Source of the DNA: Vermamoeba vermiformis
Lineage: Eukaryota
DNA: 20,000 bases
Assembly (NCBI GenBank): GCA_045837725.1
Contig: JBEWZL010000246.1
Coordinates: 184,271 to 204,270, forward strand
Reading direction: 5' to 3'
Made by a program: the position numbers and the translations under genes. The notes under the pieces were generated by a model. The model made no database searches. It was not told the origin of the DNA and saw only the letters and a program-made list of their open reading frames with translations. This document shows, in pieces, positions 380 to 19,896 of the stretch. Numbering within the stretch: the stretch's first letter is position 1; each line of letters begins with the position of its first letter.

Positions 380-607
380 TTGTTGAGCAACTTCTCCGCC
401 AATCTTGTTTGCAGCTTCGAGGAACTTAGGAAGGTGATCAGCAACAAGATTTCCAAACTCCTTGGAGGCAGCTGAAGAGCCACCAGAAGATGAAGATGAG
501 GCAGCAGAGCCAGAGCTGCCCTTAAGCTTGCCCTCAATACGAGTGACTTGTTGCTCGACCTTAGCGAGCAATTCTTCGAGTTTCTTGACTTGAGCGTCGG
601 CTGACAT
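380..607 (-). CDS. CAP: Adenylyl cyclase-associated protein (CAP/Srv2), first coding exon; the gene continues past the window start
   Basis: ATG at 607 in an AACACA-ATG context. MSADAQVKKLEELLAKVEQQVTRIEGKL resembles the CAP N-terminal coiled coil (RLE motif). It is followed by a Ser-rich linker and FLEAANKIGGEVAQQ, typical of the CAP helical domain. Exon ends at a GTAAGA donor (379). Confidence 0.8.
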
Positions 608-761
608 TGTGTTTTGTTGGCGAGAGTTGGTTAAAATGTTCTTTTGTCGCCCTGGCGCACGAAAAACACGTTTTTCCGTACATGGAAGGAGGGAGAAAAA
701 CATATTTTTTTCTCCCAAGGGAGAAAAAACTTTTATCAATTTTATTCGCATTATAATGTTA

Positions 762-786
762 GGAGTCACGTGTCGGAGTCACGTGT
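762..786. promoter_or_regulatory. Tandem E-box pair (GGAGTCACGTGT x2) upstream of CAP
   Basis: Exact 12-bp direct repeat at 762-773 and 775-786, each containing CACGTG, about 160 bp upstream of the CAP ATG. Confidence 0.55.
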
Positions 787-789
787 TGA

Positions 790-1085
790 CGGTTCACTGA
801 ACATAGTGAATCGGTCTAAAACTCCTTGGATCTCGCTTTCTCCTCCATGTACCTGGGCGACAAACTATTCTACGCTCCTCGGGAGAAGGCTTTTCGGTCT
901 CGGGTTGATTGTTTCCCTCGCCAGGGCTCGGGAATGCAATACAAGCCCTCGACGGAAAAACGCCACTTTTCTCCCTTGGTGCGTAAATAACTATTTCCCG
1001 CTTGTCTGACCAACCCACCACAACCACAAGCCCGATGTAATTTTGCTTACTTGTAGCACTGTGATGCTGTTAAGCTTGCGAAGTG
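790..1085 (-). ncRNA. Candidate structured RNA element of unknown family
   Basis: GC-enriched, with nested helices that need minus-strand G-U pairs: 1021-1008/816-803, 975-969/887-881, 961-942/930-911 (loop UAUUGCAUUCC) and 1080-1072/1033-1025. Confidence 0.4.
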
Positions 1086-3607: not shown

Positions 3608-4825
3608 TTATTGTTGGTTGGTGCTCTGCTCGACGGTGTGGGGTTGTTCGTTATCTTCTTTGGGCTTGTGCACTTTAACAACATCAGGAAGAGGGTGCTT
3701 GGGACCGCGCTTGCCTTGAGGATCGGAAGGCAACATAATAGTGACTTGGATACCCAAAATACCTTGACGGAGCAAGACAGATCGGATGGCGTGGTCAACG
3801 AAGTCGTGAGAAGGTTGACCGGACTTGATCATGTAACCGTCACGGAACTTCATGGTCTTGGCACGTTGAGATCTGAGCTTGCCAGAGATGGTGATTTCGA
3901 TACCCTTGCCACCAGCTTCCAAAACTTGGCGCATAACACCGTAGCAGACACGGCGGACGGGCAAACCGAGAATCATCTTAACACGGAGAGACTCGGCTTG
4001 AGCAACAGCGCTGAGACCTCTGTTTTGAACACGTTCGGCGTACAACTCAATGGCGCCTTCTTCGTATCCGAATCTCTTTTGGACCACTAAAAAAATTAAT
4101 ACTATTAGTCCTCTGATATTCATCTCTTGCGATCCAAACAATATCTATCTGAATAATAGCACGCTCAATAATAATAAAATTAAAGTAATAATGAACTGAA
4201 CATCTGATTTGAAAACGCATCTCCACAAAGGTTACTGGCTTAGTATCGAGTCTTTTAGCTACTTACTGGAAGTCAACTCGCGGATTCTGCGACCACGTTC
4301 ACCGAGGACGTTACCAGTCTTGGTGGCTCTAACGATGACTTCAGTAGCCTTGGGGGTGACTCTGATCTCAACACCGCTGTAACCATCATCGCCCAATTGG
4401 CGCATCAAGAAAGCGTTCAATTCAGCGTAGAAAACACCGTCAGCGACGAACTAAAAAGAAAGAGGTTTAATAAAAATACATCTAGAATTATTTTATTACA
4501 AGTGTTGTAATCACTATTATAACTAAATTAAATGTATGTATTAGCCATAATGCGATTGTGTACATTATTAAATAATTTCGCCATTATAATACAATTTTAC
4601 AATTATAAAAATACAATTATTATTTGATAAAAATTATGACCATTGGTCATCATTATTTTCGTCGTTTGACGTATCAATATCATTGAATAACTGGTCTAAA
4701 TTGTAATTATTTGTCGCAATAATATTAGGATTGTCAACAATAATTTCAAATCTGCATCGGCCAGTTTCATAGCAATAATGAATACGTACTTTTCTCTTCT
4801 TGTTAACGCGCTTAGCAGTAGCCAT
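3608..4825 (-). CDS. RPS3: 40S ribosomal protein S3 (uS3), 3 exons (4825-4790, 4450-4267, 4086-3608)
   Basis: [24 protein letters not shown]...[11 protein letters not shown]...[16 protein letters not shown]...[13 protein letters not shown]...[17 protein letters not shown]...LLRQGILGI. Canonical splice sites preserve the frame. Confidence 0.98.
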
Positions 4826-5046: not shown

Positions 5047-8000
5047 ATGGATCCTAATTACGGTGAACAACCGGATGACTTGGATTACCTAGATGATGGG
5101 TTGATTCAAGAGCAAGACCTTCCGTATGACGATGAAGATGACGATAAAATTGATGAAACATTTGGTGATGATCTGCCTGTTGGTAAGCGTTTATTTCTTG
5201 TTTAAACCACTAACAGAAAATTATTTATTGTTTTCTATATAATCGTTGTAAAATTACCCTGGCTTGTAGTAACGTTACAAATATTAATATAATATTATTT
5301 TAAATTCAAGGACGCGATTGGAAGCCTGATGAAGGCAAAGTAGCCGAGTTTGAGAATTTTTTCCAAAAGGGATTGCAATCTGGGGAAAGTAAGGCATTGA
5401 AACATTCGTGTCCCTTTGCAACACCGAATAATAATATGACTTAGATATCCAAAAAGAGAAGAAAGACCAATCAGGAGGTTTTTTCCCTTTCTCAACACCG
5501 GACCCGTCAAAACTACGCAGCTTCCTTAATGAGAATCGAAGCTTAAGAAATCAACGAGAAGAACTCGGCGAGGAAGATGACGAGCGCAATGACGATACAT
5601 TCGGAGACTATGACGACGAAAATGAAGAGGAAGTTGCACTCGTACGTCAAATTCACAAATTTATCGTGCACACATTTATTCACTGAAATTTTGTATTATT
5701 AGCGATTGGATCAACAACTGTCGAAGACTTTGAGCAGTCTCGTTCTTGACGACGATACTACTAGTAACCCAAGACCCGCTCAACCACGCTTCGTAAGATT
5801 TAATTGTTAAATTTGAACTCCGCGCACGGAGAACTTATCCTTTTTCGCTTAGCCGCCTAACTTTAATATGATGCCTCCTGGTTTGAACAAGGTAAGTAAA
5901 TCATCTACGGCACTACAATTGCAGGTGTACTAACGATAGTTTCAGCCTGGTTTACCTTCAATGCCACCTGGCGTTCAGGGTTCACCCGCGCGTCAAGAAG
6001 GACGTCGCGTGTTGTCGCTCGAGGAACTTGAGGCCAAGATGACTAACTCGCCAAAGCCTGCTCAACCTCAATCGAATATGCCTCAACCACCTCCTGGTCT
6101 TGGTGTCGGTCCCGCTGCTAATCCTCAAATGCCCATGCCGATGGGAATCTCACCAATTATCATGCAACAGTTAATGCAACTGCCGCCTCAGATCCAACAA
6201 CAATACTTGCAACAACTGATGCACCAACAACAAGAGATGATGGCTCGTATGAAGATGAACCCCGGCATGAACGCACCGCCCGGTATGGTTCTTCCTCCTA
6301 ACATGATGCCTCCTGGCGTCTTGCCACCGAACAACGCTCCCAACATGACTCCCGCGTTCTTGCAACAAATGGCACAAGCACAACAAGGACAGCAACCTCA
6401 ACAAATGCAACAAAACCAACAACCTAAACCTGTTCAACTTCAACAGCCTTCCGCCGCACAACAGGCTCAAGCACACGCTCAAGTGCAACACGCTCAAGCT
6501 CAAAAGCTTCAGCAACAGCAGGCCGCTCAAAACCAACAGGCTAACAAGGAACCGTTGACCAAGGCTGAACAACAAGCCGCTGAAGCGAAAGAAGATCAAG
6601 AGAACGGTCAAAAGCAACGAAGAAAGGGCTCGTTCATTCGCCGAAGATGGAATATTGGCCGCGAGTTGATGACTGCTGAAGAAATTGATTCGATTATTCG
6701 TATGCAAGAACAACAATTGAACTTTGAGAACCCGTTCTTGGACGACTATTACTATCAGAACACTTTGATGCGAAAAGACAGTAAGTTTCATTTGCTTGAG
6801 TTTTGGCACGTGATTAACCTTCGAATAGACTCGGCTGCTACTAAGTTGATCTATCATCGCCCTATCTGTGAGGCTCTTACCCGCGCTCCTCCCAAGAAGA
6901 CTACTATCGACTTCCAAGGAGTTTTAGGACGTATTCCGACCCACTCTGTTCGCGCACCTCGCCCAATCTTGCAGCTCGAAGAGGAGAAACCTGGTGACGC
7001 CTCCAACGAACAAGCCGAGAACGAGTCTCAAAAGCCACGTGCGATCTCTACTAGAACTACTCCCGTTGGCTCGAACCACTATTATTTGCTCGCTATCGAA
7101 GACATCTACAACATCGTTTTGGAGATTGAAGACTTAGACACTATTATCAGACACATCTCCAACGACTCTCGAGACCAGTTCTTCAATAAGAATGGTTTGC
7201 TCGAGAAGCGCAAGGAGAAGACAGAGGCCTTATATCAATTATTGAGCGTTCATATCCCGGCTCCCGGTCCTCTTCCTCCCTCAAACAACGCTAGCGCTTA
7301 CTACTGGTAAGAACTCTAACCGTACAAGTACTGTTGTATTGTTGCTAATGTGCCTTTTTATTCTAGTTCTGAAGATGAATTCTTGATGCGCGTCACTACT
7401 ATTCCTAAGGGCTCGACACTCTTGGGCCGTGCTCTTCAGGTGCTGTTCCCGCCTCACTTGTTGACCATTTTGTTCCAGTACATGCGCAACTTGTCGATCT
7501 TGCTCTCTACTCCTAAGAGCGAAGAAGACGAAGTACGATTGAAGCGCGTCTTCGAGTTCATCGTGGTTGCCATTAACAACTTCCCGCACGCTCAAGTTTT
7601 GATTGCATTCCAATCACTTTTGGCAGCACATCCGGCTCCCAAGTTCATCAAGATTGCCAAGTCGAAGTTTGGTGTGGCTATTCTCGCCGCCTTCTTGAAG
7701 AAGGGCTACGAAGTGCTTCGTATTGCTATGACCAATCCTCAAAGTGCTAACGATTTGATGCCCTCTTGGCGCCATTTGTTCTCGCTCTTCTTCGAACAAT
7801 TGGCTGGCAAGGCAAGCGGCTTGTTGGCCGGTGACATTACCGTTGGCTACACGAACAAAGCGAGCACTAATCAGATTTGGGAGTTGTTTACTATTATTGC
7901 AGTTAACTCTACGCCGACCCAAAAATCAGATCTGTTGCGCGAGTTGACGTAAGTCTGATCCGCTTTAGTTTAAAAATCTTAATAGTAACTAATATGCTTC

Positions 8001-11807: not shown

Positions 11808-13354
11808 ATGTCAGAGAATACGGTGGCAGCTAAAAAACAGAAATTGAATGATGGATCGGCCGTCGCTACTCAAGTAGTTGATCTAGAGGCAAATGAGGCA
11901 AGCTCAGCTGTGATCGAGGCGACAGAACCTACAAACGGTAAGAAAAATTCATAATATTCAAATTAGAATTTTATTGATACATTTATAATATTATTAACAT
12001 AATTTGAGGGCTTAAAATGTCGGTCTATTTTTTGAAATTAATTTTTAAAAAACAATTTAGATGTCACCTTGGAAACTCTATCTGAAGATGTGAGGACAAC
12101 AGTATTGTCGAATATAGATATATTTACAGCAGCGAAGCTTGCGATGACTAATAAGTACTGGCAAGCCAACACAAAGCTCATTAAAGTAGATCTACGAAAG
12201 CAAGCTTTAAAGTACGTTGCTGTACAGCGAACACTGAAGTTAATAATTTGAACGATTTGAAGACTAATTATGAAATGCTTATTAGAATCGATGATGAAGT
12301 TGTAGAAGGACTATTCCACTCGTTTCCTTCGATCCAAAAAATCAATTTCAGATCCTGCTATAAAGTTACAGGGGACTGTAAGTGGTCAAATTACTATTGC
12401 AATATGTTATCTAATATTAATTGGTTTTATAGCGTTGAGTTTGTTGCCTACTTTGACAAACTTAACATCGCTCAACTTGAGCGAGACAGGTCTTAAAGGC
12501 AGTGCTTTTGAGACCATCCCGAATTGTACAAACTTAGAAGAACTCATTTTAGTACGATGCCCGACGACCCCTGCACTAATTAGGTAGGTTCATACAAGTG
12601 CATATATTGTGAAAGTAGATCTAACACTGTTTTAAGAGCGATCTGCGAGAAACTCACGAAGTTAAGAAGGCTCAATTTATTTTGGCCGCCATTGACTCAA
12701 TCAATTTCCGATGCGTCATTGCAGCTCATGAATGGTCTCGTGAACTTGACTTACTTGAATGTATCGTGGTCAGAAGAAATTACCGACAAAGGTGTCATGT
12801 CACTTGGCGCATTGACTAATTTGGAAGTGTTGAAGTTGAACAGCTCAAAAATTACTGACAAGAGCCTCGAATTCATCGGCAAAACGTTCAAAAAGTTGCG
12901 AACGTTGCACATCCAAGATACATTGATTACAAATGAAGGCATCAGAGATCAACTCGTGCCTAATATGCCACAATTGACCGCGATTGCTTTGGGCGGCAAA
13001 AATGTTACGGATCCGGCCTTAGGACACATCGTCGGTTTGAAGAACTTGAAGACTGTTATTACTGGCGGCCCTGGTGTTACTGACGCAGGCGTGCTGTCCA
13101 TTGCAAAGATTGCAGGACTTCAATATGTCAATATTTGGCAGTCGTCTATCACTGACGAGGCCATGACGTACTTAGCCTCGTTGTTGCAGCTCAGAAAACT
13201 CAAATTGGACGGAAATATTTACATCACTGATGACGGCATAGAACGCATTGCTAGTTTGAGGAAGTTGCGACTTTTAAGTCTGTTTGGATGCACACTCGTT
13301 ACTGATCGAGGGCCACGATACGTATCAAACGACAATTTGAAGATTATTCGTTGA
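11808..13354 (+). CDS. F-box / leucine-rich-repeat protein (FBXL-like), multi-exon
   Basis: F-box-like LETLSEDVRTTVLSNIDIFTAAKLAMTNKYW in exon 2 (from 12061), then ~24-25-aa LRRs (LxxLxL..xITDxG) to TGA at 13354. N-terminal KKQK may be an NLS. Confidence 0.85.
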
Positions 13355-13516: not shown

Positions 13517-14946
13517 ATGGCAGCACAACCAACTCAAAGATTCCTCGAAGGAAAAGGAGATATATTTAATGGCCTTACTATCACCGAACTACCAGACACT
13601 GTTGAAGAGTTTGAACAAATTTTGACTGGTAAGATCTTGGATCGCGCCAAGTCGCGAGATAAATTTGCAACCGATTTATTTATATTCGCATTATTTTTGT
13701 AGTACGGCAGAGTCAAATTAGTCTTATTGGATCCATCAACTGATTATTTTAATTTTAATAATAATTTTTGACTAGCTTCATTGGCTGAATGGACGAATAT
13801 TAAAAAGAGAGGAATATGGATTAAAATACCGATTACTAAATCTGAATTTATTCCTATTGCAGCCAAGGTAACGTGTGACCTTCTCGAAACTTCGGTTCTA
13901 ACGTTCGATTTTAGTTGGGCTTTGAATTCCATCACACAAAGAAGGATTATTTATTCATGACCAAATGGCTGCCACTGGATGAAGAGAATAAGTTGCCTGC
14001 CTATACCACGCATTATGTTGGTACGTCAAATTTGACAGTCGAATGAAGTACTAACCATTTCAATAGGTGTTGGCGGTTTTGTGTTAAATGACGTAAGAAA
14101 TATAACTTGACTTAATTTCCCGCTGCTGACAAAAAGACAGAAAAAAGAACTGCTGTGCGTACGTGAGAAGTATTTCGCGGTCAGCCCTTGGAAGTTGCCA
14201 GGTGGCATGGCTGATCCCGGTAACTATCTTCGTTATATGACATTGAGTGTGTATTGTTGACAAGGAACAGGGGAGGACTTAGGCGAGGCAGCCAAGCGAG
14301 AGGTCTTCGAAGGTAACACGCGTTGACATGTCAACCACAGTCTAGTACTAATATGAAGCGTAGAAACTGGAATAGAAGCAGAGTTTGAATCGATCATTTG
14401 CTTTAGGCACAGACACGATGCCGCGTTCGGAGGGTAAGTAGGCTTTAGGTGACTCATACCGGTTGGGTTGAAGTTCTGTCAAAAATTCGGATCAACAACG
14501 GCTCCGTAGTATAATGGCTATTATATTGGATTCTGACTCCAAGGATCCCGGTTCAATTCCGGGCGGGGCCTCTTTCTTTTTACTTTTTTACCTTTTTTAC
14601 CTTGTTAAGCTGTCCTGACTTCTTTTTAGTGGCGATCTGTATTTTATTGCGAGATTGAAACCAAAGACTACCGAAATTAAAATAGATCCACTCGAGATCG
14701 CGGAAGCTCGTTGGATTCCGGTAGGTGATTGTGACTTTCTTCGCCATTAGCTTATTACAATTACAGATCGATGAGTACATCAATGACCCGAGCATCTATG
14801 ATACAAACAAGGAAATCGCAAAGTTAGCGATGTCTCACTGCAGCGATTCTGATCCGTACTTGTACAAAGAGACAGAGTATTCCACAATTCCAGTGCCTAA
14901 TTGGAACAAGACGGCCAATCACCTATTGTACAGAAGCGGAAAGTAA
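13517..14946 (+). CDS. Nudix hydrolase, NUDT6 / plant NUDT2-7-8-like, about 9 exons
   Basis: Spliced motifs KRGIWIKIP, GFEFHH, LPAYTTHYVGVGGFVLN, WKLPGG, the Nudix box GMADPGEDLGEAAKREVFEETG (split over small exons), FRHRHDAAFGGGDLYFIARLKP and EIAEARWIP. Confidence 0.9.
14500..14571 (+). tRNA. trnQ-CTG: tRNA-Gln(CTG), intronic
   Basis: 72-nt cloverleaf: acceptor GGCTCCG/CGGGGCC, D-arm with TAGTATAATGG (A box), anticodon arm TTGGA-TTCTGAC-TCCAA, T-arm CCCGG-TTCAATT-CCGGG, followed by oligo-T. Confidence 0.96.
14577..14598 (+). terminator. RNA polymerase III oligo-T terminators of the tRNA
   Basis: Three runs of T5-T6 immediately 3' of the tRNA. Confidence 0.7.
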
Positions 14947-15078: not shown

Positions 15079-16319
15079 ATGCAAAGTATAGTATTCTTAG
15101 GAACAAGCGCAGGAACACCGACCAAAACGCGTAACGTACGTGCAAACCCACATCTATTGGCAGTAAATTTTTGAATCGCTTAAAATAGTAAATCTCATAA
15201 GCTTTCGAATTTCGAAAATTATTCTAGCCGTCGCTGGATTTTTTTAAATTAATTTTCAAATTTATTTTAGGTAAGCAGTTACGCCGTCCGTTTCGCTGAT
15301 TCGAAAATCTGGCTCCTCGATTGCGGAGAAGGTATTGAGCAAATATTTTACGCTGCGTCGCTAAGATAATTCATAGGAACACAACACCAAGTTTTGAAAA
15401 CTGATCTTGTGAAACTCAACAAAATTGAGGTTATATTTGTAACACATTTGCACGGTGATCACTCTTTCGGCCTTCCTGGGTATGTAGCTGCCATTCTAAA
15501 CAATTATTGGTAAGTTCTATCGCTAACTGTTGCGTGCTTAGTTTGCTGGCCTCGATGAGTTTGCTCGCCGAGCGAGGCCCGTTAAAAGTTATTGGTCCTC
15601 AAGGATTAGACAAAATGATCAATACTGCTTTGAGTCTTAGTGCTTCGTATATTACATATCCTTTAGAGGTAAGAAAACATTCGCACAGTGGAGTTTGACC
15701 GGATCTAATTCCAATGACACAGATTATTGAATTGGAAGAGAACAAGATTAAAGACTTGGGCAATATTAACGGATTTAAAGTCCAAGCCTACCCGTTGAAG
15801 CATAAAGTAGCGTGTTTCGGCTACGTAGTTTCAGAGCCCGAGAAGCCAGGCAAACTTGATGCAGCCAAAGCCAAACAACTCGGTGCACAACCGAAGGACT
15901 TGGGTCTGTTGAAGGCAGGCAAAGACGTGACACTTGCTGATGGCACTGTTGTTAAATCTACTGACGTGTTGTCCCTGCCAACCCCTGGCAAAAAGATTGT
16001 CATGCTCGGTGACACGTGCAACAGCGACAGTTTGTTGGAGGACGGAATCGGGTGTGACGTTGTCATTCATGAAACAACTTACCACGCAGAATTGAAAGAG
16101 AAAGCAATCGCTGGCGGTCATTCTACGAGTCAAATGGCTGGCGAATTTGCGGCCAGACTAAAGGCCAAGAAGCTGATCATTACTCACTTCAGTCAACGAT
16201 ATTCAACGGCCACTGGCCCCGATGAAGTTACCGTCGATCATTTGGTGAAAGAAGCTCAAAAAGAATGTCCTGAGACTGCTGTACTCGCAGCTGCTGACTT
16301 GCAAAACTTTGACATTTAA
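15079..16319 (+). CDS. Short-form ribonuclease Z (tRNase ZS, ELAC1/Rnz-like), about 5 exons
   Basis: [22 protein letters not shown]..., LLDCGEGTQ, metallo-beta-lactamase motif THLHGDH, flexible arm [24 protein letters not shown] and THFSQRY. Confidence 0.93.
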
Positions 16320-16367: not shown

Positions 16368-16387
16368 CACGTGGTTATCCACGTGAC
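16368..16387. promoter_or_regulatory. Paired E-boxes (CACGTG at 16368-16373 and 16380-16385)
   Basis: Two CACGTG 12 bp apart, about 85 bp upstream of the ATG at 16469. Confidence 0.45.
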
Positions 16388-18333: not shown

Positions 18334-19896
18334 TTAGTGAAGTACGGCGGCAAATACAGCGAGCAATGTCAGCACACTTGTACCCCCAAGTTGACGACCA
18401 ACGGAAATCTTTGAAGGACGAGAAGATTCTGTGGGCTGTTGCGATGTCGTTGGAGCCGATGAAGTGCATGAAATGACAGAAGTACAGCTCACGTCGTTGA
18501 AGCCTGATCGTGTGAATGTGAACTCAACCATGACACTCTGTGGGCCTCTTGCGACACCACTCTGTTGGACTGACACTTGACCACAGCCAACTGACGTGTT
18601 GATCGTGAACAGAGACGACACGTTGAGTTGATTGGCATTGTCTGGAAGTGAGTCACATGAGGCCCAGGTGAGATTATGACACGTGACATCTGTTGGTTCG
18701 AGCACGCAAGGTGCTGCGCGAGTAAGATACAGCGTAGTATTGCCAAGAGGGTCGATAAAGTAAGTTTCAACTTCGAAGGTGATCACTTGTTTGTCGACTA
18801 TTGCAAGGTCCATGCCAAACATGACTGGGTTGTTGGACGTAGCTCGTTTAGTTGGAGTCCAAATGCCACTCGATTCATCGCGTTCCAGCCATATGATAGA
18901 GCCTCCGACGGTTATATTCTCGTTGTAAAATCCATCGTGTGGAGCTGTCGCAACGATGGTGTTTTGATCCACGAATTGAATGTTTTGAGCGAAGAAACTT
19001 CCGATCTGATTATATTCAACGATGCCGACAGTGTCCAAAGTGATGTTTTGAACAGGTTCCCAATCATTCTGTCTGTGCCGGACTGAAATTCCTCCGTCAA
19101 GACCATAGCCACTTCCGATGATTATGGTGTCGTTGCCATCGTATAGAATATTGAGATATTGAATGCCAGATTCGAGTAAAGGAATCGTTTCCACAAGAGC
19201 CCATGTGTGATTCGGTTGTAGAGCATAAAGTTTGGCTGCAAAAGGTTTATCGTCGTATGTGTAAACGTAATTTGGTTGGATTCTGAACCAATAAGGAAGC
19301 GTAGGATAGCTTTCGGGTATTTCAGTGCGAGTAATAGTCCAATCAGTGCCATTAAAGTTGAAAGTTTTGATCCCATCCGCGTCAAATGAAGCGACAGATC
19401 CATCGTCAAACATCCAAGAATATTGGCCCGCATCAATTGTATATGTCTCGTTGGCAAATATTCCATTCGAGTCTATTCGAAGGATCTGGCGTGATGTGAC
19501 TCGAAAATCATAGTTGGAAACAAAGATCCACTCGCCGTTCGTTGAAAGAGCTAAATATCTGCTGTATTCATAGCCCCCAATAGGGTGAGAGTCTACGTAG
19601 TTATAATAGCCCAGAGAATCTCGCTTGAAAGAGACCAACTCGCGTCTCGTGCAATCCAACGAAACGACCAGATTTGAAAATGCAACGAGAGGATAATCTT
19701 TGGGATAAGGATAAAACAAGGTATCCGTTAAAGTGCGGTTTGCCACTCGAGAAGTAGGTACAGGCTAAATATATAAATATTACTTATTTAAATAATTAAA
19801 GAAGACGCCGAATCTTTTTCAACTTACCGTAAGAGCAATAACGGAGGAGAGGCCAATGATCAATAAACAAACAATTAATATTAAAGCCTGCTTCAA
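18334..19896 (-). CDS. Secreted / probably GPI-anchored surface protein, 2 exons (19896-19828, 19764-18334); start codon uncertain
   Basis: Exon 1 encodes a signal-peptide-like KQALILIVCLLIIGLSSVIA, with a phase-0 GTAAGT...TAG intron. Exon 2 is beta-rich with many NxS/T sites, a Cys-containing region, an S/T/P stalk and a terminal hydrophobic tail (VLTLLAVFAAVLH) with no cytosolic segment. Confidence 0.8.

Follow-up and report, generated by a model that had tools for sequence, protein, structure and literature searches.

In U1 snRNA, the 5' end (ACUUACCU) pairs with the 5' splice site, and stem-loop II carries the loop AUUGCAC, closed by a C-G pair. In U1, the Sm site, RAUUUUUGR, stands before a 3' hairpin. 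Some Sm-class snRNAs, such as U5, are built on one long 5' stem-loop. The cores of K-turns, C/D boxes, and SECIS elements use tandem sheared G-A pairs for protein docking. The divergent transcripts of bidirectional promoters are normally poorly conserved and unstructured.

The locus described here lies immediately upstream of the promoter of the CAP (adenylyl cyclase-associated protein) gene, in a 20-kb window, which is the whole stretch of DNA that was analysed. The original prediction, made from that stretch alone, had drawn a structured RNA of about 300 nt on the minus strand, from 790 to 1085, with a loop resembling the U1A-binding site of U1. A real element is present, and it is smaller than was drawn: a GC-rich block from 793 to 998 that, within Rfam 15, is an orphan structured non-coding element without a described family.

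Genomic setting

The window reads as eukaryotic. A Pfam search of it returned a PAT1 exon at 5940-7310, an exon of the ribosomal protein uS3 on the minus strand at 3611-4144, and also a Ras-type exon and LRR exons. The uS3 exon is 99% identical to one metagenome protein and at most 73% identical to the rest of the best 120 of 818 matches, which leaves the source organism without a close sequenced relative among the proteins searched. For the PAT1 exon, the best protein match is 41% identical. In the window, the reverse complement of GGTAAGT occurs 10 times compared to 1.8 expected, an enrichment that points to canonical 5' splice sites and hence to a canonical U1 elsewhere in the genome.

The name CAP follows the label of the original prediction and an N-terminus that reads as that of this protein; exon 1 (380-607) is short and had no Pfam match. 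In a related organism, here called organism B, the CAP cDNA has its end at about 621-624, with reads reaching no further upstream than 637. This end point speaks against the suggestion that the structured segment might be a leader of the CAP mRNA.

Structure of the element

The GC-rich island was correctly seen: positions 801-1100 have a GC content of 0.49-0.505 and the flanks one of 0.24-0.385, and the block has 0.495 compared to 0.338 for 1100-1880. The predicted helices are present in the minus-strand MFE fold of 790-1085 (Table 1), and this fold is better than that of any of 200 shuffles (z -4.29). The contrast between strands that had been expected is not there, as the plus strand of 790-1085 also beats its shuffles (z -3.79). 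The central hairpin of about 19 bp, drawn with AUUGCAUUCC as its loop, is suboptimal, with an energy of -98.4 when forced, compared to the MFE of -103.2 (a cost of 4.8 kcal/mol). The MFE fold has AUUG paired to CAAU and its apex at 925-922.

Within the block, the significant structure is the rod. It has an MFE of -53.6 on the minus strand (z -5.53) and -53.4 on the plus strand (z -4.92), none of 200 shuffles folds as well, and the slightly longer segment 865-990 reaches a z-score of -6.15. The whole block has an MFE of -67.4 (minus strand) or -69.5 (plus strand). Both strands of the conserved block thus fold equally well, and the assignment to the minus strand from G-U pairs fails here. The remainder (790-868) has no significant structure (z +0.71), and its terminal hairpin, folded as 788-820, reaches -12.2 on the plus strand compared to -7.3 on the minus strand.

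The rod carries three 2x2 internal loops, which on the minus strand are made of purines only. Among 1000 dinucleotide shuffles, a single one had at least two GA/GA loops, and 29 had exactly one. The rod also holds three of the six CCCGAG and two of the six CGAGGG matches of the 20-kb window, all on the minus strand, on which CGAG occurs five times in the rod. The plus-strand equivalents of the loops are pyrimidine-pyrimidine (UC/UC and UC/UU), and the rod has two G-U pairs on the plus strand and one on the minus strand. The direct repeat AACTATT flanks the rod; for identity of a 7-mer at such spacing, the background is 1.6e-4 per position pair. A protein-coding exon was considered and rejected, given that the frames of 91 and 124 codons have no Met and no Pfam match; the 1-nt indel found in two of the homologous sequences described below (L011 and X2) also argues against coding because it shifts the frame. 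The view of the segment as structured, non-coding, and without an Rfam match is upheld by the Rfam, ORF, and Pfam results.

Table 1. Features of the CAP-upstream region (window coordinates)
Feature	Position	Strand	Details
CAP exon 1	380..607	-	ATG at 607-605; supported by translation; spliced reads and contigs end at 379/380
CAP-proximal region	643..727		exact 9-13-nt inverted matches to the element
Inverted match 1	643-652/855-864		
Inverted match 2	649-657/919-927		
Inverted match 3	669-679/952-962		
Inverted match 4	678-686/844-852		
Inverted match 5	690-699/967-976		
Inverted match 6	715-727/967-979		
TATA-like CATTATAATG, palindromic	749..758	.	self-inverted 10-mer; distance to 796 about 40 nt, to the CAP cDNA end about 125 nt
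Two tandem GGAGTCACGTGT copies (CACGTGAC boxes)	762..786	-	CAP orientation
Conserved GC-rich non-coding block (the element)	793..998	.	identity with L011; X1 and X2 contigs; GC 0.495
Terminal hairpin, 9 bp	791..812	.	better on plus strand (2 G-U); A-C mismatches on minus strand
Linker, 56 nt	813..868	.	purine-rich on minus strand; holds GAGUUUUAGA, not a canonical Sm site
AACTATT, left copy of 7-nt direct repeat	863..869	+	flanks rod
Rod-like hairpin, imperfect palindrome	869..987	.	119 nt, 44-47 bp; sole part with significant structure
Three 2x2 purine-purine internal loops	876..980	-	AA/GA, GA/GA, GA/GA; closed by C-G/G-C
AA/GA loop	977-976/880-879	-	
GA/GA loop	950-949/901-900	-	
GA/GA loop	929-928/919-918	-	
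UAUUGCAUUCC, predicted U1A-like motif	931..941	-	partly paired in MFE fold
AACTATT, right copy of 7-nt direct repeat	989..995	+	flanks rod
Extension	997..1085	-	GC 0.494; absent from L011 and the X1 contig; holds 5' arm of 14-bp stem and the 5' stem
Closing stem, 14 bp	1021-1008/816-803	-	MFE fold; 5 G-U
Helix UUUACGC/GCGUAGA		-	MFE fold of 790-1085
Helix GGGAGAA/UUCUCCC		-	MFE fold of 790-1085
5' stem, 10 bp	1081-1072/1033-1024	-	MFE fold; 4 G-U

Conservation and copy number

Metagenome contigs were scanned with one degenerate pattern taken from the core, which gave 14 loci (L001-L014), and one of these, L011, is a true homolog. The other 13 (L001-L010 and L012-L014) are chance matches to the pattern, as are seven further matches of the same pattern on prokaryote genome contigs (L015-L021). 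Viral contigs searched with a 30-mer gave no matches, and no second copy of the element lies in the other 19.5 kb of the window.

The homolog aligns to window positions 705-996. Over 793-996 it equals the window except for one extra U next to 941, an unpaired position, and the same extra U is present in X2. Over 705-792 the two are identical apart from two indels; L011 has a 12-nt deletion at about 781-792, by which one GGAGTCACGTGT copy is gone and one CACGTGAC box is left, and an additional T further down on the CAP side. Since this AT-rich promoter region is just as identical as the block, L011 adds no evidence of special constraint. Upstream of 996, L011 has zero similarity to the window. 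Beyond the block it runs into a different, same-strand, multi-exon gene, with its last exon, stop codon, and AATAAA, and a T6 run follows the block on the plus strand.

Evidence of constraint comes from X1, a random-primed RNA library from a root metagenome. Two 124-nt contigs of X1 cover the CAP exon at 380-503 (depths 7.57 and 7.15; 2 and 4 differences), and in them 2 and 4 of 42 third-codon positions differ from the window, all six changes being synonymous. The block is covered by one 203-nt contig on 796-996, with ends at 998 and 796 and a depth of 4.1, and this contig has 1 difference in 201 nt. At the third-position rates of CAP, 9.6-19 neutral differences would be expected over 201 nt (Poisson P 7e-4 to 1e-7). 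No CAP contig of X1 is identical to the window, so the element contig comes from the diverged haplotypes. The copies found (L011, X1, and X2) are all near-identical to the window, and the low divergence in X1 is the strongest argument for function along the whole length of the block.

Evidence of transcription

Two indexed runs contain part of the window, and four (X1, X2, X5, and X7) were aligned to it; X3 and X4 share almost no sequence words with it. The X1 library also yields a 56-nt contig that carries the CAP exon junction with a loose end at 379, the mark of spliced CAP mRNA. Beyond these contigs and the one on the block, X1 is empty over 350-1400. Depth in X1 is 4.1 on the block compared to 14.7 on the CAP exon, and zero on 638-795 and 997-1400; this zero is weak evidence of boundaries because the CAP coding sequence at 504-607 also has no X1 contig. 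In X2, a run whose kind is not on record, one contig covers 804-965. The contigs of both runs cross the rod boundaries without a break. The prediction of a minus-strand transcript stands insofar as a contig from an RNA library covers 796-996, and falls short on strand, as Logan contigs are strandless. An RNA library such as X1 may also contain DNA. In addition, L011 departs from the window (at 997 and 792/793) within 2-4 nt of either end of the X1 contig, so these ends could be branch points of the assembly graph rather than RNA ends.

Two runs of raw cDNA reads from organism B, X5 and X7, placed 118 and 165 reads, all on 350-637. None falls on the element, and coverage stops in the 602-637 bin. 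Fold-back joints in these reads converge on 621 and are read as the 5' end of the CAP mRNA; the loose ends start about 3 nt further upstream and contain what looks like a tagmentation adapter. If organism B has the element, its absence from these cDNA runs, for which poly(A) selection is not on record, would fit an RNA that lacks a poly(A) tail.

Known RNA classes

No Rfam family (4227 families, Rfam 15) matched at its gathering score, and at E <= 10 the 321-nt query gave nothing besides a spurious C/D snoRNA match. With that cut-off spread over 4227 families, very weak matches to a single family would be hidden. The U1, U11, and U12 models gave no match at the gathering score or at E <= 10; in Rhizophagus, one report gives all four minor snRNAs as found via Rfam models (PMC10639083). 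A U1 snRNA was rejected for want of the 5' motif, an Sm site, a four-way junction, and a covariance-model match. ACTTACC has 10 matches in the window and none in 780-1100, and the nearest on the minus strand (1365-1371) lies in AT-rich, unstructured DNA. Sites of the Sm type with up to one mismatch number 61 in the window and none in 780-1100, as the original prediction had said of both motifs, and no four-way junction appears in the predicted folds.

The likeness to stem-loop II of U1 (RF00003) consists of AUUGCAU, one letter off AUUGCAC, followed by UCC in a possible 11-nt loop. The difference is that AUUGCAU-UCC at 941-931 on the minus strand becomes a loop only 4.8 kcal/mol above the MFE, in a suboptimal hairpin. 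In the forced fold, the AUUGCAU loop is closed by a G-C pair and has an extra U, which is polymorphic in L011 and X2. ATTGCA is a common hexamer in the window (23 compared to 18 expected). The reading as a U1A site is not supported. A string at 1052-1040 resembles the 5' region of U12; this candidate was rejected since the string lies in a non-conserved segment and U12-type motifs are at chance level, with RTATCCTT found twice in the window compared to 1.18 expected, TCCTTRAY once compared to 2.96, and one match in L011 that 22 of 200 shuffles equal. An arbuscular-mycorrhizal fungus such as Rhizophagus, suspected as the source because of the root-metagenome run, was dropped along with it, the uS3 exon having no close named relative.

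Other classes were rejected by eye. An ANANNA-like AGAAUA follows the rod, but there is no pseudouridylation pocket of the H/ACA kind, and 790-868 has a z-score of +0.7; a Dicer-type hairpin does not fit a rod whose longest uninterrupted helix is 7 bp. C/D, SRP, RNase P/MRP, telomerase-template, and spliced-leader RNAs were likewise rejected, as were SECIS elements and HDV-like and hammerhead ribozymes. With the Sm-class snRNAs, such as U5, the element shares a long irregular stem-loop, a single strand, and a short terminal hairpin in about 200 nt. This order exists on the minus strand only, and the element has no Sm consensus, no conserved U-rich apical loop, and no Rfam match. With the RNAs built on tandem G-A pairs it shares two 5'-CGAG-3'/5'-CGAG-3' loops and one CAAG/CGAG loop. 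Its loops are symmetric 2x2 loops, unlike a K-turn with its 3-nt bulge, and it has neither C/D boxes nor an AUGA quartet.

The link to the CAP promoter

The two CACGTGAC boxes and the TATA-like decamer lie between the element and CAP. CACGTGAC is found 4 times in the window compared to 0.34 expected. Exact inverted matches of at least 9 nt between the CAP-proximal region and the element score 8.5, while 200 block shuffles averaged 0.56 and never exceeded 2.5. Two of the matches (13 and 11 nt) are better complements of the 5' arm of the rod than its own 3' arm is. They are arranged collinearly rather than nested, which means that they cannot simply extend one hairpin; even so, a transcript of 625-998 would fold with z-scores of -7.3 (minus strand) and -6.8 (plus strand). 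When the CAP-proximal region is aligned locally with the element, the score is 27 (shuffle maximum 28, 95th percentile 19), and the similarity consists of short exact modules with no single long duplicate. A scan for bacterial-type promoters and terminators, irrelevant to a eukaryote, returned only a hairpin at 706-729.

The inverted matches fit duplication within the locus, DNA motifs for protein binding that both segments share, or cross-talk between RNAs, and none of these explains them with confidence. A more specific scheme would make the element a rod-shaped RNP RNA of a new class, whose 5'-arm modules (13, 11, 10, 9, and 9 nt) are exactly complementary to 643-727. Either this RNA or a long CAP isoform that contains it would alternate between the closed rod and a form paired to the CAP-proximal region, which would couple the RNA to the control of CAP. 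The scheme is speculative, and we consider it very unlikely.

What the element may be

The best explanation, held tentatively and with less than even confidence, is that positions 793-998 hold a gene, present once and under strong constraint, whose product is a small structured non-coding RNA of about 205 nt. This explanation starts from what is established, namely the extent of conservation, the rod, the loop design, the lack of coding capacity, and the presence in one RNA library. The product would be a stable, discrete transcript, probably without a poly(A) tail, that may serve as a protein-binding scaffold. Its docking sites would be the three C-(R)A-G/C-GA-G purine loops, of the tandem sheared G-A type and present on the minus strand only, and the unstructured, purine-rich linker could be left open to protein or base pairing. 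Because of these G-A loops, the minus strand is slightly preferred, by little more than an even choice. Several facts stand against an RNA gene: the conserved sequence does not extend upstream of 996, where a minus-strand promoter would lie; the rod folds equally on both strands, as a DNA palindrome would; the 7-nt repeat around the rod resembles a target-site duplication; and inverted short pieces of the element recur near CAP, as in repeat or promoter DNA.

The RNA could instead be read from the plus strand, as a divergent transcript of the promoter region shared with CAP that starts at about 793-796, passes through the rod, and ends at about 996-998. The sole conserved flank lies on the CAP side, where 705-792 is kept in L011 bar two indels, and the TATA-like decamer is nearer to the X1 contig start at 796 (about 40 nt) than to the CAP cDNA end (about 125 nt). 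The terminal hairpin is stronger on the plus strand, the rod has one more G-U pair there, and the T6 run of L011 follows the block. The element adjoins the CAP promoter and occurs in a random-primed RNA library while being absent from the cDNA runs of a relative, much as a divergent transcript might, although this block is nearly invariant and strongly folded. Plus-strand pyrimidine loops, however, give no reason for a repeated design, the plus-strand z-scores fall slightly short of those for the minus strand, the CACGTGAC boxes point to CAP, and T4 runs lie inside the block, which matters if Pol III is used; the reading is unlikely. We regard it as somewhat unlikely that the rod is the remnant of a MITE or foldback transposon, or that it belongs to the CAP promoter as a palindromic cis-regulatory module, with any RNA a by-product. 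Such an origin would account for the strand-symmetric folding, for the inverted repeats at the rod termini (UUUACGC/GCGUAGA), for the AACTATT copies, exact at both rod ends with a 1-2-nt offset at one and resembling a target-site duplication, for the inverted matches and enriched CACGTGAC boxes nearby, and for the lack of RNA family matches. An imperfect palindrome of about 119 bp with inverted ends and a 7-nt repeat, close to a gene and with related fragments nearby, is indeed like these transposons. It differs from them in conservation far above neutral (a neutral remnant would show about 10-19 differences, and at most one is seen), in being GC-rich in an AT-rich genome, and in its repeated purine-loop build. 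The non-palindromic part (796-868) is equally conserved, and the contigs are unbroken at the rod ends. No other copy was found in 19.5 kb, among seven genome-contig matches, or in viral contigs, and the 14 metagenome matches hold one orthologous locus. For a promoter module, uniform conservation over 200 nt is stricter than usual, and each GA/GA loop needs two adjacent transversions, an unlikely outcome when a palindrome decays at random. The two sets of facts would be reconciled by an element that inserted as a transposon and was then retained for a function in RNA or DNA.

The RNA of about 300 nt first drawn, closed by the 14-bp stem and bearing a 5' domain, with L011 as a truncated allele, now appears hardly credible. 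In its favor, the extension is as GC-rich as the core (0.494 compared to a background of 0.34), both stems are in the MFE fold, and, by our own rough estimate, a 14-bp stem with G-U pairs allowed would be expected about 0.02 times by chance. But in L011, the only relative found, all sequence upstream of 996 gives way to the 3' end of a different gene, and the core is kept identical. As a result, the closing stem, the 5' stem, and with them the predicted extent are absent there, and the G-U argument for the minus strand, which depends on stems whose 5' arms lie in 997-1085, rests on non-conserved sequence. The X1 contig stops at 998, and the 10-bp 5' stem is within chance expectation, again by our own estimate. 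It is also highly improbable that the element is a very divergent universal RNA (U1-like, minor-spliceosomal, telomerase, RNase P/MRP, or SRP) missed by the Rfam models. The organism has no close relative among the best 120 of 818 uS3 matches, weak Rfam matches would go unlisted, AUUGCAU-UCC is present, and the layout loosely recalls the Sm-class snRNAs. Against these points, no family apart from the spurious C/D snoRNA appears at E 10 on 321 nt, ACUUACC, an Sm consensus, and a four-way junction are missing, U12-type motifs are at chance level, and no template-like repeat, C/D, H/ACA, or P4-type motif was seen by eye.

Significance

A long-range closing stem and a famous loop motif, both proposed from one sequence, failed a single comparison with a relative. 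If the rod is a domesticated palindromic transposon, it would be an example of one under strong constraint beside a housekeeping promoter. If, on the preferred reading, the element is an RNA gene, it would be a near-invariant orphan of about 200 nt with a triple purine-loop rod, matching none of the 4227 Rfam families. The linkage to the CAP promoter, together with the complementarity, would give a testable case of local RNA-based control, and the RNA gene would provide a family seed for a poorly sampled branch of the eukaryotes.

The edge of the conserved block

The window and L011, a metagenome locus that is otherwise identical to it here, part company structurally at the edge of the conserved GC-rich block (793-998), the candidate structured RNA. 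The divergence falls at window position 997, which corresponds to L011 283-284. Beyond the block, the window continues with an 89-nt GC-rich segment, then about 800 nt of AT-rich DNA, and then a divergent plus-strand gene; in L011, the block adjoins the 3' end of a same-strand multi-exon gene with a signal peptide. On the window side, the plus strand of the "intergenic" DNA carries AG|GTAAGT (1365-1371), with 520 nt separating it from the start codon at 1889; this site may mark a 5'-UTR intron in the plus-strand gene. Read on the minus strand, the same site is ACUUACCU; it is not followed there by U1-like sequence, and Rfam gives no match.

Toward CAP, the neighboring minus-strand gene, the two sequences differ in the copy number of a repeat. 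The 12-nt unit GGAGTCACGTGT at 762-786 is present in two copies in the window and one in L011, and CACGTGAC is enriched in the window (four observed, 0.34 expected). The 10-bp hairpin TTTTTTCTCCC/GGGAGAAAAAA (706-729) sits between the CAP cDNA end and the TATA-like box.

The linker of the block contains an exact 15-nt inverted match (816-830) to a PAT1 exon (6913-6927; BLAST E 0.007). If the element RNA is the plus strand, it would be complementary to PAT1 mRNA at these positions, but the match is probably due to chance.

Features of the window and of L011
Feature	Position	Strand	Remarks
Plus-strand gene beyond block	ATG near 1889	+	window
3' end of L011 neighbor gene	stop 392-390; AATAAA 313-308	same strand	L011 coordinates
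Further CACGTGAC copies	16380-16387; 18680-18687		window
10-bp hairpin	706-729		T-runs flanking on both strands
uS3 exon	3611-4144	-	single match at 99%, to a 13-member cluster of metagenome proteins
Stable fold, strand-specific	6426-6555	-	z -2.99; antisense to PAT1 exon
Three successive near-perfect hairpins	12401-12530	+	MFE -40.9; GC 0.37; z -4.97
tRNA gene	14500-14571	+	Rfam tRNA, 60.6 bits
Stable fold, strand-specific	15776-15905	-	z -3.50; in metallo-beta-lactamase-fold exon region

Other structured loci

The tRNA is the only Rfam match across the window. The fold of the three successive hairpins, which lie inside or beside the LRR gene, is strongly strand-specific, the opposite strand reaching -25.8.

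CAP transcripts and the source organism

In the raw cDNA reads of related organism B (X5 and X7), numerous opposite-strand (fold-back) joints occur over 460-621 and converge on 621; they are taken as library artifacts that mark the 5' end of the CAP mRNA. In X1, a random-primed RNA library from a root metagenome, two CAP haplotypes are seen over 380-503. They differ from each other at five positions, and the six changes listed relative to the window are all synonymous and in third-codon positions. The two are equal in depth (7.57 and 7.15), and a heterozygous diploid or dikaryotic population is suggested for this sample. Apart from the single close match to the uS3 exon, all matches among the best 120 of 818 are at or below 73%, and the lineage of the source organism lacks closely related sequenced members in the protein collection searched.
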